Notes: generated from the sequence alone by a model not told the origin. A DNA stretch of 64,000 nucleotides from Escherichia coli (GCF_016026235.1 NZ_CP065613.1); one strand, 5' to 3'. Numbered from the stretch's first letter, positions 17,515 to 27,648 are shown. Numbers and translations: made by a program.

Positions 17515-18348
17515 GTGAAAAAAACACAGCAAAAAGAAATCGAAAATGTGACAAATATCACAGGTGTTCGTCAAATTGAGTTATGGCGGCGTGATGATTT
17601 ACAACACCCACGGTTAGATGAGGTCGCGGAAGAAGTTCCCGTTGCGCTGGTCTACAACGGCATTTCGCATGTGGTGATGATGGCGTCGCCCAAAGACCTT
17701 GAGTACTTTGCGCTCGGTTTTTCGCTTTCCGAGGGGATAATAGAAAGTCCGCGCGATATCTTCGGCATGGATGTCGTTCCTTCCTGTAATGGTCTTGAAG
17801 TACAAATTGAGCTTTCCAGCCGCCGCTTTATGGGGTTGAAGGAGCGCCGCCGGGCGCTGGCGGGACGTACGGGCTGTGGCGTATGCGGCGTGGAGCAACT
17901 TAATGACATCGGAAAACCGGTGCAGCCGCTACCGTTCACCCAGACGTTTGATCTCAACAAACTGGATGATGCATTACGTCATCTCAACGATTTTCAGCCA
18001 GTGGGGCAACTGACTGGTTGTACTCACGCCGCTGCCTGGATGTTGCCATCTGGCGAACTGGTCGGCGGGCATGAAGACGTGGGTCGCCATGTGGCGCTGG
18101 ACAAACTGTTAGGCCGCCGGTCACAAGAAGGGGAAAGCTGGCAGCAAGGTGCGGTACTGGTTTCCAGTCGTGCCAGTTATGAAATGGTGCAAAAGTCGGC
18201 GATGTGCGGCGTAGAGATTTTGTTTGCGGTGTCTGCCGCGACCACGCTTGCTGTAGAAGTGGCTGAGCGCTGTAATTTGACACTGGTAGGTTTTTGTAAA
18301 CCGGGTCGGGCAACGGTTTATACCCATCCGCAGCGTTTGAGCAATTAA
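17515..18348 (+). CDS. fdhD: sulfurtransferase FdhD (formate dehydrogenase maturation)
   Basis: 277-aa ORF; divergent from fdoG. Confidence 0.9.
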
Positions 18349-22424: not shown

Positions 22425-23865
22425 GGACAAGCTCCTGTTGCGCGGCTTTCGCTTTGCGGCGTAACCACAATCCTTTCAGGACGATAATGAATGAAATGTT
22501 CAGCGCGAGGCCAATCGCCAGCACCAGATAAAACGAACCCACCGGCGACATCAGGCCGATCAGCGGGTCAAAGATACCCAAACCAGGTGCCAGACGTTTG
22601 ATTCCGAAAGCGATCACCAGCACGCCGGTAATACCGCCCGCCAGCGTATTGGCGGTAATCATCGGCAACGGAGCTGCCAGAGCGTAAGGAATAGCCGGTT
22701 CGGTTGCGACTGTGGCACCGACCACAATGGAACTACTGGCAGCCTCTTTTTCCTGTCGGGTAAACAGTTTGGGCGCAATGAACGTCGCAAGACCCGCCGC
22801 GACGGGCGGCATCAGCGCGACAACGCCGACGATGGCGTACCAGTCATAAATGTGTTTTTCCAGCAGTGAGAAGCAGAAGAACCAGGCGGTTTTATTGATG
22901 GGGCCGCCCATATCGAACGCCAGCATCGCACCGACCAGAAACGCTGCCGCAAACTTCATTGATGGAGGAATGGTATTCAGGAAGTGGAGCAGCCCGCCCA
23001 TGAGGTCGGACATCACCGGCCCGATAACGTAGTAAGTGAGCACGCCGAAAACCAGCAGAGTAACGAACGGGATCAGCATTGAACCGAGCAGCGGTTGTAA
23101 TGCTTTGCCAAGGCGCACTTTGCGGAACCAGAAGACGAAATAGCCAATCGCCAGCCCCAGCACCACCGCGCCGAGGAATCCCGCACCCGACTGGGTGCCG
23201 AGCAGCGCTTTGTCGTTCGCCAGATAGCAAACCAGAAACGCCGGAGCGAAAGCCGGTTTATCGGCAATCGACGAGGCAATATAAGCGCCCATGATGGGGA
23301 TCATAAAGGTGAAGCCAAGGTAACCGATGGATTCAACTACCCAGGTAAACGACGGCGCGCCTTTCGACATATCGGTATACGGCAAACCGAACTGCACCAG
23401 CATGTTGGCAAGCGCCACCAGGATACCACCGCCGATGACAAACGGCAGCGCCGCAGAGACGCCCGCCATCAGGTGGCTCATCACGCTGCCGCTTTGCACT
23501 TCCTGTTTGCCAAGCTTCACGCCGCTATCTGCGGCAAAAAGCTGCGAGTTTGTCGGTAATTCGCTGAAAATCTGGTCGATATTTTTCAACGCCTGGGAGA
23601 TGGCAATCTCATAAACTTTCTTCCCGGCAAACCGCGCGCGATCATCACCGCTCAGGCCACGCCCGGTAGCGAGAATGACGTAATCGGCAGCGGCAATCTC
23701 TTCGCTGGATAAGCGGTTTTCAACGCCACTGGACCCTTGAGTTTCCACTTTTATGGTATGACCGAGAGAACGGGCTTTCTGTTCCAGGGCTTCCGCCACC
23801 ATGTAGGTGTGAGCGATCCCGGCGGGGCAGTTGGTGATCGCGACAATACGTAAGGATGACTCCAT
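22414..23865 (-). CDS. frvB: PTS fructose-like EIIBC component
   Basis: ORF 22414..23871; N-terminal IIB with NCPAGIAHT cysteine, C-terminal multi-TM IIC. Confidence 0.85.
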   Translation of the reverse strand: MESSLRIVAITNCPAGIAHTYMVAEALEQKARSLGHTIKVETQGSSGVENRLSSEEIAAADYVILATGRGLSGDDRARFAGKKVYEIAISQALKNIDQIFSELPTNSQLFAADSGVKLGKQEVQSGSVMSHLMAGVSAALPFVIGGGILVALANMLVQFGLPYTDMSKGAPSFTWVVESIGYLGFTFMIPIMGAYIASSIADKPAFAPAFLVCYLANDKALLGTQSGAGFLGAVVLGLAIGYFVFWFRKVRLGKALQPLLGSMLIPFVTLLVFGVLTYYVIGPVMSDLMGGLLHFLNTIPPSMKFAAAFLVGAMLAFDMGGPINKTAWFFCFSLLEKHIYDWYAIVGVVALMPPVAAGLATFIAPKLFTRQEKEAASSSIVVGATVATEPAIPYALAAPLPMITANTLAGGITGVLVIAFGIKRLAPGLGIFDPLIGLMSPVGSFYLVLAIGLALNISFIIVLKGLWLRRKAKAAQQELVHEH

Positions 23866-23875
23866 CGCCACTTCC

Positions 23876-24322
23876 TTATGAGCTGAGGGTTTGATTTAAC
23901 AAGGCAAGCACCTGGTCGGTATCGCCCTGTTGCAGTTGATGAATAAATTCCTTGTGAATAATTTTGCGACACAGTGTGCCGATGATTTTGACCTGATCCT
24001 CTTCGCCGCTTTGCGGCACGCCGAGGCAGATCCAGCAATTGACGTCTTCGCCATCGCTGGCTTTCCAGTCAATAGCCTGCGCTTTGCGGGCGAATAATAC
24101 GAACGGTTGTTTAACGCAGGCGCTTTTACCGTGCGGCACGGCGACACCGGAACCAAATCCAGTAGAGTGCATTTTTTCGCGCAGCAGCAGGGTTTGCAGG
24201 AACTGGTGTGAGTCGGTGATAAAACCGTTTTGTAACGCTATTGTCGCCAACTGCTTCAGAACGGAATAAGCGCCATTGCCCTGAATATTCAGGTCAATAC
24301 AGCTTGCAGTAAGTGCTGCCAT
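23876..24322 (-). CDS. frvA: PTS fructose-like EIIA component
   Basis: ORF track extends to 24451; start placed at MAALTAS (ATG 24322) for a ~148-aa IIA domain. Confidence 0.8.
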   Translation of the reverse strand: MAALTASCIDLNIQGNGAYSVLKQLATIALQNGFITDSHQFLQTLLLREKMHSTGFGSGVAVPHGKSACVKQPFVLFARKAQAIDWKASDGEDVNCWICLGVPQSGEEDQVKIIGTLCRKIIHKEFIHQLQQGDTDQVLALLNQTLSS

Positions 24323-24798
24323 TATTGGACTCCATGAAAAAATATTATTGTTAATTGTAACGGCGGGGCGGTTTTGTGATGAGCGCGGATATGTCGTGAA
24401 GTCGTGACAATATAAGGCAGAGTGAAGGATAAATTTTGCGGTGTAAGGCACATATTGATGGGTTAAATAAATGTTGTGAATAAAAAATCATTATTTAATG
24501 ATTTTGTGAATGTTTAACTGTTGCGGATATTTTTCTGCCACGTTATTTATATTTGTGGCTTATGAGTCAGTTTGAATCATATCTAATATTTTTTACGATA
24601 TTTAGTTAAAAACGGCACTATTGTTATATTCCTCACGTTCCAGGAAATCAGCGGATTTACTCATATTATACGGCGGGATACTATCCATCGGCCTGCTGAA
24701 GTTGGATTAAAAATTCGAAAGTGCACACTTTATATTTCTCTATATACGTATTCCTTTTGGAAAGCGTAGGGCCTCCTTTATTTCAGGGAACGTAAATA

Positions 24799-26193
24799 AT
24801 GAAAAAATCGACATTATCTTTAGCCATCGGTTTATTATTGGCATGTAGTACCGGTATGGCAAAAACACAGCATTTAACGCTGGAACAACGCATGGCATTG
24901 CTGGAAGAACGCCTGGAAGCGGCAGAAATGCGGGCGGCAAAAGCAGAGAGCCAGGTTAAACAGCTGCAGACACAACAAGCCGCTGAGATCCGCGAAATTA
25001 AGGCCGCTCAGGGCAATACGCCGGTAAATGGACAGGCAACGGCGGAATCTGCAAAGAAAAATGCCACCTCACCTAATCTTTTGCTTTCAGGTTATGGCGA
25101 TTTAAAAATCTACGGCGACGTAGAATTTAATATGGATGCGGAAAGTAATCATGGCCTGCTGGCAATGACCAACGCTGATGTGAATAGTGATCCCACTAAT
25201 GAACAGTGGAATCTCAATGGTCGTATTCTGTTAGGTTTTGACGGTATGCGAAAGATGGACAACGGTTATTTCGCCGGGTTCTCCGCACAACCGCTGGGTG
25301 ATATGCACGGTTCAGTAAATATCGATGATGCGGTATTCTTCTTTGGCAAAGAAAACGACTGGAAGGTCAAAGTAGGCCGTTTTGAAGCCTACGATATGTT
25401 CCCGCTGAATCAGGATACCTTTGTTGAACATTCCGGTAATACTGCGAACGATCTTTATGACGATGGCAGCGGTTATATCTATATGATGAAAGAGGGCCGC
25501 GGGCGCTCTAACGCTGGCGGTAATTTCCTCGTCAGCAAACAACTTGATAACTGGTATTTTGAATTAAACACGTTACTTGAAGACGGAACATCTTTATATA
25601 ATGACGGTAATTATCATGGACGCGATATGGAGCAGCAGAAAAATGTTGCTTATCTGCGTCCGGTAATTGCCTGGTCGCCGACGGAAGAATTCACCGTTTC
25701 CGCAGCGATGGAAGCGAACGTGGTAAATAATGCTTATGGTTATACCGATAGCAAGGGTAATTTTGTCGATCAGTCCGATCGTACCGGCTATGGTATGAGC
25801 ATGACCTGGAACGGCCTGAAAACGGATCCGGACAATGGCATTGTGGTTAATCTTAATACCGCCTATTTAGATGCTAATAATGAGAAAGATTTCACTGCCG
25901 GGATTAACGCGCTGTGGAAACGTTTCGAGCTCGGTTATATCTACGCGCACAATAAGATTGATGAATTCAGCGGTGTAGTTTGTGATAACGACTGCTGGAT
26001 TGATGATGAAGGGACGTACACCATTCACACCATTCATGCGTCTTATCAGTTCGCTAATGTGATGGATATGGAGAACTTTAATATTTACCTCGGGACGTAT
26101 TACTCCATTCTGGATAGCGACGGTGATAAAAAACACGGTGATGATACTGATGACCGTTACGGCGCACGCGTTCGCTTTAAATACTTCTTCTGA
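24799..26193 (+). CDS. putative outer-membrane glycoporin (signal peptide, N-terminal coiled coil, beta-barrel ending in Phe)
   Basis: 464-aa ORF; signal MKKSTLSLAIGLLLACSTGMA; heptad-like LEQRMALLEERLEAAEMRAAKAESQVKQLQ; alternating amphipathic strands; C-terminal RFKYFF; no K-12 gene recalled between frvA and rhaM. Confidence 0.6.
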   Translation: MKKSTLSLAIGLLLACSTGMAKTQHLTLEQRMALLEERLEAAEMRAAKAESQVKQLQTQQAAEIREIKAAQGNTPVNGQATAESAKKNATSPNLLLSGYGDLKIYGDVEFNMDAESNHGLLAMTNADVNSDPTNEQWNLNGRILLGFDGMRKMDNGYFAGFSAQPLGDMHGSVNIDDAVFFFGKENDWKVKVGRFEAYDMFPLNQDTFVEHSGNTANDLYDDGSGYIYMMKEGRGRSNAGGNFLVSKQLDNWYFELNTLLEDGTSLYNDGNYHGRDMEQQKNVAYLRPVIAWSPTEEFTVSAAMEANVVNNAYGYTDSKGNFVDQSDRTGYGMSMTWNGLKTDPDNGIVVNLNTAYLDANNEKDFTAGINALWKRFELGYIYAHNKIDEFSGVVCDNDCWIDDEGTYTIHTIHASYQFANVMDMENFNIYLGTYYSILDSDGDKKHGDDTDDRYGARVRFKYFF

Positions 26194-26233
26194 TGAAGGC
26201 GCGGTGCTGGATATTTTCCGGCACCGCAACTCA

Positions 26234-26548
26234 TTAAGGCAGGTAAAACACTTCTTGCAGCTCGCTACTCACCGGGCTGTTATCCGAGTTAGCGGGCATA
26301 ACATCGGTCATATATTTCCACCAACGTTGGCAAACATCAGTACTGGCAACCGCATTCCAGCGTTCTTCAGATTCAATCTCTACCATGGCAAACAGCAGAT
26401 TACGCGCTTTGTCGAGATAGATGGCGTAGTTATGCGCACCGTGAGATTTCAGCACTGCTTCCAGTTCCGGCCAGATGGGATTATGCCGACGCTGATACTC
26501 TTCGTGGGCGTCGGGGTTTACCTGCATGACAAAGGCTTTGCGGATCAT
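26234..26548 (-). CDS. rhaM: L-rhamnose mutarotase
   Basis: 104-aa [25 protein letters not shown]... Confidence 0.9.
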
Positions 26549-27382: not shown

Positions 27383-27423
27383 GTTCTGTGTTCCTGTAAA
27401 TTCGGTGTTGTCAGATGCACGAC

Positions 27424-27644
27424 CCGTAGGCCGGATAAGGCGCTCGCGCCGCATCCGGCAATCAATGCCTGATGCGACGCTGTCGCGTCTTATCAGGCCT
27501 ACAACTATTGCCGACCTGTAGGCCGGATAAGGCACTTGTGCCGCATCCGGCAATCAATGCCTGATGCGACGCTGTCGCGTCTTATCAGGCCTACAACTGT
27601 TGCCGACCTGTAGGCCGGATAAGGCGCTCGCGCCGCATCCGGCA
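27424..27644. repeat. BIME cluster (tandem REP pairs) between rhaD and rhaA
   Basis: About 100-bp unit (gtaggccggataaggcgctcgcgccgcatccggca atcaatgcctgatgcgacgctgtcgcgtcttatcaggcctac) repeated twice plus a partial third copy. Confidence 0.85.
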
Positions 27645-27648
27645 GTGT

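Follow-up and report, generated by a model that had tools for sequence, protein, structure and literature searches.

Between the frv operon and the rhamnose cluster of an Escherichia coli genome (GCF_016026235.1, NZ_CP065613.1) lies a long open reading frame with the appearance of an outer-membrane porin gene. Its presence raises the question of what kind of channel is specified, how the gene came to occupy this position and what the channel might carry. The original prediction, made on a stretch of 64,000 nucleotides (hereafter the window), was of a sugar-specific glycoporin inserted at this site in particular strains, serving the uptake of a rhamnose-related glycoside or a cryptic frv substrate. 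We propose instead a chromosomal porin of the RafY family which forms a wide channel, has its own CRP-dependent promoter, is ancestral at the locus and has been lost by about half of E. coli; we regard this account as probably correct.

The gene and its locus

The reading frame occupies positions 24799 to 26193 of the plus strand, begins with ATG, encodes 464 amino acids followed by a stop codon and ends in ...RFKYFF, exactly as first read. RefSeq lists the product as "carbohydrate porin" (WP_000749940.1). Public data contain the identical protein on at least 1000 contigs, and the 90% cluster to which it belongs comprises 3990 members. This is a real gene, already annotated and of a known kind, which is functionally uncharacterised; a search of the literature found no report on expression, transport or conductance of the chromosomal porin.

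The gene order is fdhD, yiiG, frvRXBA, the porin, rhaM-D-A-B, rhaSR and rhaT. The gene frvA (23876 to 24322, minus strand; placed by the RefSeq annotation of a 100% identical region and by tblastn) is divergent from the porin gene and shares with it an intergenic region of 476 bp, while rhaM (26234 to 26548, minus strand) is convergent with it. These two are its neighbours in the window, where no raf genes adjoin it. The intergenic DNA 5' of the porin is AT-rich, as had been noted, with a GC content of 0.30-0.37 between 24300 and 24900 as against 0.50-0.58 in the flanking genes.

Predicted structure and family assignment

A hydrophobic, signal-like segment was indeed seen at the N-terminus (MKKSTLSLAIGLLLACSTGMA, followed by KT). 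Reading from the sequence, we predict a signal peptide of residues 1-21 (24799 to 24861, plus strand) with cleavage after GMA; the pattern (G/S)(M/F/L)A preceding KT is conserved in the orthologs, which read ...VANTGFA before KT in this region. A lipoprotein reading (LLLAC before S) was ruled out, as the Cys of the window protein is absent from the orthologs, and cleavage by SPase I is therefore likelier than use of a lipobox.

An AlphaFold2 model built with a 43-sequence alignment attained a pLDDT of 81.9 and a pTM of 0.72, compared with a pLDDT of 34 for a single-sequence model. In this model the signal peptide forms a hydrophobic helix at the N-terminus; a second, long helix follows at residues 28-71, then a linker of low confidence and a barrel of 16 strands. 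The second helix (24880 to 25011, plus strand; pLDDT about 72-90) is predicted to be a periplasmic, coiled-coil-like extension, in agreement with the roughly 40-residue N-terminal extension postulated beforehand. The allele of strain Nissle 1917 lacks exactly seven residues of it, RMALLEE; this is one heptad and thus fits a coiled coil that needs its register kept. Pfam Sugarporin_N gave a weak match to residues 27-54 (E=0.06), short of significance.

The barrel, delimited by Pfam and AlphaFold2, spans residues 104-464 (25108 to 26190, plus strand). After strand 5 the model has a long conserved loop (residues 195-240), and it is in this region that the invariant residues of the 43-sequence alignment cluster (G193, D206, Y228, R236); E196, R234, G235 and G241 are nearly invariant. 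The 16-strand topology is predicted, and TCDB, as cited in PMC4827864, also predicts 16 strands for the RafY family.

Over the same residues the protein matches the whole of Pfam PF16966 (Porin_8, "porin-like glycoporin RafY"; model positions 1-372 of 372, score 510.9, E=2.7e-153), an E-value that places the porin observation far beyond chance. BLASTP revealed 354 identities in 450 positions (79%) with the porin whose gene follows rafD in two raf operons; that porin is likewise 464 amino acids long. A paralog with about 86% DNA identity ends the rafR-rafA-rafB-rafD clusters found in E. coli genomes on plasmids and on a tRNA-Phe island, and is the genuine rafY. The RafY family is small: at E≤1e-3, a set of 1.84 billion cluster representatives yielded 235, of which many were fragments.

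The Pfam search returned no LamB-family domain even at E≤10, no NCBIfam model matched, and searches of PDB chains with the porin sequence and with the 43-sequence profile gave no sequence relative. When structures were compared, the predicted barrel resembled general porins more closely than it did ScrY or LamB; ScrY and maltoporin, both 18-stranded, came later (18.2 and 17.9). The title of Andersen et al., cited in PMC4827864, is in keeping with this. The protein thus combines the signal peptide, the outer-membrane beta-barrel of about 16 (predicted) strands and the C-terminal aromatic residue of the RafY family, and its model has 16 strands where LamB, ScrY and BglH have 18. Since the Pfam profile, the 16-strand model and the TCDB prediction agree, we conclude that it is a member of the RafY family and not a LamB/ScrY/BglH-type channel. 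The architecture first suggested, that of ScrY, RafY and BglH together, therefore holds in part: the protein is a porin and groups with RafY by Pfam and by its 79% identity, but the missing LamB domain and the 16 strands separate it from the other two.

The K-12 state and distribution in E. coli

K-12 MG1655 was expected to have no gene at this place, and this was borne out by a blastn comparison of the K-12 locus with the window, by the K-12 sequence and by its annotation, in which the frvA-rhaM gap is 300 bp. The missing segment is 24472 to 26232. Homology with K-12 ends at about 24471 and restarts at 26233, so that the interval originally delineated (24452-26233) coincides with the indel to within 20 bp; where the window has the intervening 1761 bp, K-12 has an unrelated AT-rich spacer of about 150 bp. 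Local alignment of this spacer with the porin segment scored 15 against a null of 14.6 +/- 2.1, which is not significant, and gap-tolerant global alignment gave scattered short matches only. The idea that the 150-bp spacer is a decayed porin remnant was rejected as unproven, its local score being no better than that of shuffled sequence. That K-12 lacks the gene is the reason why the porin has escaped study.

Of the 5426 complete E. coli genomes examined, 2544 have the porin segment (at least 80% of 24452-26233 present), nearly always annotated as "carbohydrate porin", and so the gene cannot be called strain-specific, as had been supposed. Carriers include O157:H7 and the probiotic strain Nissle 1917. 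The K-12-type empty spacer is present in 2826 of the genomes, in two alleles (2137 genomes at ≥99% identity and 690 at about 88%), and the two states together account for 99% of the set. Other arrangements also occur: IS1 lies inside the locus in H4, and IS1-bounded deletions have removed frv genes, HS30-1 retaining only the last 25 porin codons. Loss in about 52% of genomes, together with these IS1 events, indicates that the porin is dispensable in many niches.

The gene has been met before under another name. A 2016 paper describes a "rafY homolog annotated as rafY2" in O157:H7 genomes without rafRABD (PMC4809568), and in a study of 2026 only 23 of the 45 isolates with rafY had rafABD (PMC12987596).

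Origin and selection

Scanning one genome per species, we found full-length relatives with 70-85% identity in four species of Kluyvera, three of Citrobacter and two of Enterobacter, as well as in Pseudocitrobacter and Trabulsiella. With few exceptions in these five other genera, the porin is convergent with rhaM as it is in the window. On its other side, frvRXBA follows directly in Trabulsiella, Enterobacter kpr-6 and Escherichia; in two Kluyvera species it lies upstream with about 2.5 kb between (azlC-like genes and an XRE regulator). In Citrobacter and Kluyvera georgiana the porin adjoins rhaM and frv is not beside it. The flanking genes have diverged to a degree similar to the porin (rhaM 77-89%, frvB 88-92%).

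These observations do not bear out an insertion between frv and rha. Given the synteny with rhaM across genera and the similar divergence of the flanks, the porin has long resided here and K-12 shows the derived condition; judged by these comparisons, it is ancestral at the locus in the Escherichia-Citrobacter-Kluyvera-Enterobacter group and was deleted in K-12. About half of the E. coli lineages, K-12 among them, have lost it.

Compared with the alleles of O157:H7, Nissle and E. coli E69, the porin gave dN/dS values of 0.074, 0.044 and 0.019, respectively, dS reaching 0.38; against Kluyvera and Trabulsiella dN/dS was 0.04-0.06. The reading frame was intact in all alleles and all genera sampled. 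The porin is under strong purifying selection.

Leader, candidate promoter and gene ends

For 12 genera or species, the 400 bp preceding the gene were aligned, and a motif scan was made over 15 syntenic (rhaM-adjacent) orthologs. Alignable leader sequence was scant beyond the ribosome-binding region and one block, which reads TGTTA-N6-TCACG, 18 nt, TTTAC(T/G/A), about 17 nt and TAnnnT. TGTTA-N6-TCACG occurs with identical internal spacing in 15/15 syntenic orthologs, at 177 to 238 nt from the ATG; both pentamers are invariant and four of the six spacer positions vary. This promoter geometry has been conserved although dS in the coding region is saturated. In the motif scan, neither the Klebsiella homologs nor plasmid rafY proved to be preceded by this block.

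In the window the candidate CRP-like site is TGTTA-TATTCC-TCACG (24622 to 24637, plus strand). It agrees with TGTGA-N6-TCACA at 8/10 core positions, one of the two mismatches being the second G of TGTGA, and with 31 CRP-core matches (two mismatches at most) in the window against 26 expected it is not significant on sequence alone. A putative -35 element, TTTACT (24656 to 24661, plus strand), always lies 18 nt past the TCACG half-site; in the syntenic orthologs it is TTTAC in 12/15, TTTTC in two Trabulsiella, and shows no clear hexamer in Enterobacter JUb54. Across a 17-nt spacer follows a predicted -10 element, TACTAT (24679 to 24684, plus strand), whose TAnnnT is conserved in the orthologs. 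A consensus promoter scan of the leader did not list this -35/-10 pair, and its proposal rests on conservation. The transcription start implied, taken to be about 7 nt past the -10 element, is near 24691, with a predicted 5'UTR of about 108 nt. As such a start would put the centre of the CRP-like site at about -61.5, we propose that the porin is driven by a class-I CRP-type promoter of its own. In lac P1 the CRP site is centred at about -61.5. The statement that the 350-bp leader has no assigned sites can thus be replaced by a conserved CRP-like site and a candidate -35/-10 pair.

Folding of the predicted 5'UTR was no better than that of shuffled sequence (z -0.59), and we therefore make no claim for a riboswitch or thermosensor. 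A Shine-Dalgarno sequence, AGGGA (24785 to 24789, plus strand), lies 9 nt before the ATG within a block, CTTTATTTCA(A/G)GGAA, conserved across genera. At the other end, between the convergent stop codons of porin and rhaM, a GC-rich hairpin was located by fold energy (26201 to 26227; -28.6 kcal/mol, z -4.9, on the plus strand and -21.9, z -4.4, on the minus strand). No T-run follows it, and it is probably a two-way terminator or a stabiliser of mRNA ends. An Rfam match over this hairpin was set aside as a sub-threshold artefact.

Perhaps the gene is instead mostly silent (H-NS-repressed, for example), an accessory gene in the process of being lost, with relevance as a phage or bacteriocin receptor or as a route of antibiotic entry, not in nutrition. 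The AT-rich leader (30-37% GC), the absence of the porin from about half of genomes and the independent IS1-mediated deletions and insertions would all suit a gene of this kind, as would the finding that upregulation of the Klebsiella porin GlyP is beneficial only conditionally and is counter-selected on other sugars (bioRxiv 10.64898/2026.03.29.715108). The dN/dS of 0.02-0.07 across deeply diverged E. coli alleles, the intact reading frames in all genera sampled, the conserved promoter architecture and the Nissle deletion, which removes a whole heptad and so keeps the coiled-coil register, speak against it, and we consider a silent gene distinctly unlikely. The gain and cost of GlyP may offer a rationale for the presence/absence polymorphism, although for E. 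coli this is speculation by analogy.

No link found to rhamnose or frv

The position beside rhaM-rhaDAB had suggested uptake of a rhamnoside or of an frv substrate, and RhaS sites were to be sought in the leader. When the leader was set against the control regions of rhaBAD-rhaSR and rhaT, the best 17-mer reached 13/17, where about 13 was expected by the null, and so no similarity above chance. The porin is convergent with rhaM and has an apparent promoter of its own. Nissle 1917, moreover, has lost frvRXBA and part of yiiG and has kept the porin and its leader almost unchanged, and some orthologs have rafR-rafA-rafB beside them. These features argue against the suggested substrates, and in the sequences compared we found no link of the porin to rha or frv.

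They also bear on the wider proposal of a substrate-specific LamB/ScrY/BglH-type glycoporin, recently inserted, which would serve a rhamnose glycoside or an frv PTS substrate under RhaS/RhaR or FrvR. Such a gene might well be placed between frvA and rhaM and share a 476-bp divergent control region with frvA; the weak Sugarporin_N match and the recurrence of the frvRXBA-porin layout in Trabulsiella, Kluyvera and Enterobacter kpr-6 can be counted in its favour. It is, however, already largely refuted on family and origin, by the lack of a Pfam LamB-family domain, by a predicted 16-strand barrel nearer to general porins and by a cross-genus synteny that speaks against recent insertion. With Citrobacter and Kluyvera georgiana holding the porin at rhaM without adjacent frv, Nissle 1917 retaining it intact after the loss of frvRXBA, and a leader no more similar to rha control regions than by chance, we judge this proposal very improbable.

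Relationship to raffinose utilization

Where members of the RafY family are linked to catabolic genes, these are genes for oligosaccharides or glycosides. The genes rafR-rafA-rafB adjoin only the Enterobacter orthologs, directly upstream in Enterobacter JUb54 and directly downstream in Enterobacter kpr-6; linkage to raffinose genes is a trait of RafY itself but no requirement for the family. The porin could accordingly be regarded as dedicated to raffinose-family oligosaccharides, working in trans with plasmid- or island-borne raf genes or with LacY/MelA as the chromosomal half of a raffinose pathway. Its 79% identity to RafY would agree with such a role, and the O157:H7 study names rafY2 and lacY as raffinose genes (PMC4809568). 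On the other hand, rafA is present in only 680/5426 complete E. coli genomes as compared with 2544/5426 for the porin, from which it follows that no raf operon accompanies the porin in at least 73% of its carriers; the raf operon already brings its own rafY; and the leader has no recognisable sugar-specific operator, only the CRP-like site. RafY itself has been reported as a general diffusion pore, going by a title cited in PMC4827864. A dedicated raffinose porin is possible, but we rather doubt it.

Plasmid rafY and the E. coli chromosomal porin gene are 57-67% identical at the nucleotide level in the 5' third and 86-94% in the 3' two-thirds, which suggests that sequence has been exchanged between them; this, too, can be taken as favouring the raffinose role. 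A more far-reaching conjecture is that the RafY lineage had its original chromosomal seat beside rhaM, and that the mobile raf operon took its porin from this lineage and still exchanges sequence with it. The approximately 50/50 polymorphism of E. coli would then be old, maintained because a CRP-gated wide channel helps nutrition in some niches of the gut and is harmful in others (entry of phages, bacteriocins or antibiotics). We think this unlikely as a whole; were it true, the fact that K-12 fell on the "absent" side would explain why the porin was never studied.

Proposed function

Returning to the reading that we prefer, a wide RafY-type channel ancestral at this locus, we envisage the following. 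The gene would form a single-gene transcription unit with its own class-I CRP-activated promoter, and activation by CRP would turn the porin on when preferred carbon sources run out (catabolite de-repression). Transcription would end at the hairpin held in common with the convergent rhaM. Once its signal peptide of about 21 residues had been cleaved off, the protein would comprise a coiled-coil stalk in the periplasm (residues ~28-71), a flexible linker and a 16-stranded barrel, which probably forms trimers. By analogy with RafY, the wide channel would admit oligosaccharides too large for OmpF and OmpC, and raffinose-family sugars and maltodextrins are candidate substrates. Of these points, the present analysis established the family, the predicted fold, the distribution, the synteny, the selection and the conserved motifs of the leader; control by CRP, the position of the transcription start, trimerization and the substrates are inferred.

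The impact of these results is modest, and no current concept is changed. RafY-type porins admit larger solutes than pass through OmpF and OmpC, and the E. coli porin could by analogy matter for the scavenging of oligosaccharides, for antibiotic permeability in porin-deficient strains, or as a target for phages or vaccines. With its conserved CRP-like promoter, the gene also offers a regulatory hypothesis that can be tested directly.

Comparison with known systems

The 16-stranded trimeric porins DcaP (Acinetobacter baumannii) and OprP (Pseudomonas) have only 10-12% sequence identity to the present protein and different substrates (dicarboxylates and phosphate, respectively); they resemble it in fold, as analogues or as very remote relatives, and do not belong to the family. 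ScrY, LamB and BglH (PF02264; TCDB 1.B.3) are also outer-membrane carbohydrate channels. ScrY in addition has an N-terminal periplasmic coiled coil, and the predicted helical stalk of the porin may reflect the same idea, with the weak Sugarporin_N match (E=0.06) described above.

Closer to it is GlyP of Klebsiella pneumoniae, a RafY-family protein which is likewise a large-channel alternative porin encoded on an enterobacterial chromosome (bioRxiv 10.64898/2026.03.29.715108). Raised expression of GlyP alone shifts carbohydrate-dependent fitness and is costly on other sugars. In recent work on Klebsiella, a member of the family was able to make up for missing major porins and to alter competitive fitness within communities of the gut. 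By its description, GlyP is set apart in belonging to an operon which also encodes a permease and a hydrolase and is controlled by a LacI-type repressor, whereas the E. coli porin stands alone with a CRP-like site. Homologs in the Klebsiella oxytoca complex are 58-63% identical and are flanked by a GPH symporter and a GH3 glycosidase.

The nearest known system is RafY of the raf operon (rafR-A-B-D-Y, pRSD2 type; TCDB 1.B.15; PF16966), which belongs to the same full-length Pfam family and has the same length of 464 amino acids, 79% amino acid identity, and the same layout of signal peptide, coiled coil, barrel and C-terminal RFKYFF. RafY complements lamB and scrY mutants, and work by Ulmke and colleagues in 1997 is said to have found that raffinose, stachyose and maltodextrins pass through it. 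The transport of several oligosaccharides is also mentioned in PMC4827864, which cites a 1998 paper (Andersen et al.) whose title calls RafY a general diffusion pore. The chromosomal gene differs from plasmid rafY in being an orphan without raf genes and in having another leader and signal peptide, with a CRP-like promoter motif that is missing upstream of rafY. Unlike the rafY of plasmids and islands, it resides at a fixed position conserved across genera.

Divergence and deletion on the frv side of the porin gene

When this strain is compared with K-12 (L003), the frvA side of the indel that carries the chromosomal porin gene shows an unusual degree of divergence, with 94.2% identity over 673 bp (window 23800-24471) as compared with 98.4% on the rhaM side. 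In Escherichia sp. MOD1-EC7003 (L012) the porin is 100% identical and FrvA only 90.5% identical. Recombination appears to have made the frv region a mosaic.

Larger losses were also found. Nissle 1917, which has a B2-type haplotype (L027, 925-3206), has lost all of frvRXBA together with a portion of yiiG (DUF3829), while the porin gene and its leader are kept; 38 bp of this leader are deleted at approximately window 24445-24482, and the coiled coil of the porin is shorter by exactly one heptad. Independent, IS1-bounded deletions were observed in strains HS30-1 (L002, 3288-4077) and TW14425 (L026, 2248-3065). The former has removed yiiG, frvRXBA and all of the porin gene except its last 25 codons. 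In TW14425 frv is lost, yiiG is truncated and IS1 adjoins a remnant of the K-12-type spacer, the unrelated sequence of about 150 bp which replaces the porin segment (window 24472-26232) in MG1655. Strain H4 carries an IS1 insertion inside the porin locus.

A palindrome upstream of frvA

The region at window 24471-24511 contains a perfect palindrome with 10-bp arms, AAAATCATTA-TT-TAATGATTTT (24484-24505), which lies approximately 160-180 bp upstream of frvA and has direct repeats, A(T/G)TTGTGAAT, on either side. It could be an operator on the frv side. The palindrome has degenerated in the alleles of O157:H7 and Nissle and is therefore unlikely to be essential.

Other features of the window

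A tandem REP/BIME array is located between rhaD and rhaA (window 27383-27648). The array spans 266 bp in this strain, whereas its length in K-12 is 450 bp, in HS30-1 358 bp and in TW14425 82 bp; its copy number thus varies from strain to strain. Close to the start of fdhD there is a perfect CRP core palindrome, TGTGACAAATATCACA (window 17547-17562), the sole zero-mismatch match to the CRP core in the 64-kb window; this site is separate from the porin finding.

Gene content around porin orthologs in related genera

Additional genes are present between rhaM and rhaD in Citrobacter and Kluyvera (L009, 7746-12464, together with L006, L008 and L011), among them one for a lactaldehyde reductase (TIGR02638, E=3e-180). 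In Citrobacter amalonaticus this interval also has ORFs which by appearance resemble a putative ABC sugar transporter. Two Kluyvera species harbor three ORFs between frvA and the porin gene: an azlC-like gene, an adjacent ORF for a small membrane protein, and one for an XRE regulator. The same three ORFs lie upstream of the porin gene in C. amalonaticus, at which locus frvA was not found.

Relationship to the mobile raffinose operon

In two Enterobacter species (L013, 1077-7386; L015, 6001-12146) raf genes occur on opposite flanks of the same porin ortholog, the gene order being rafR-rafA-rafB-porin-rhaM in Enterobacter sp. JUb54 and frvRXBA-porin-rafR-rafA-rafB in Enterobacter sp. kpr-6. Both clusters are missing rafD.

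The nucleotide identity of plasmid rafY (L004, 8925-10319) to the chromosomal porin gene (window 24799-26193) was followed along the coding sequence, using Citrobacter as a yardstick. Across nucleotides ~630-1320 rafY is 86-94% identical to the E. coli chromosomal allele and Citrobacter lower, at 74-85%, whereas across nucleotides ~180-420 rafY is only 57-65% identical to it and Citrobacter higher, at 73-83%. Plasmid rafY therefore looks like a mosaic relative to the chromosomal gene, and this unevenness suggests that the mobile and chromosomal porin copies have recombined.
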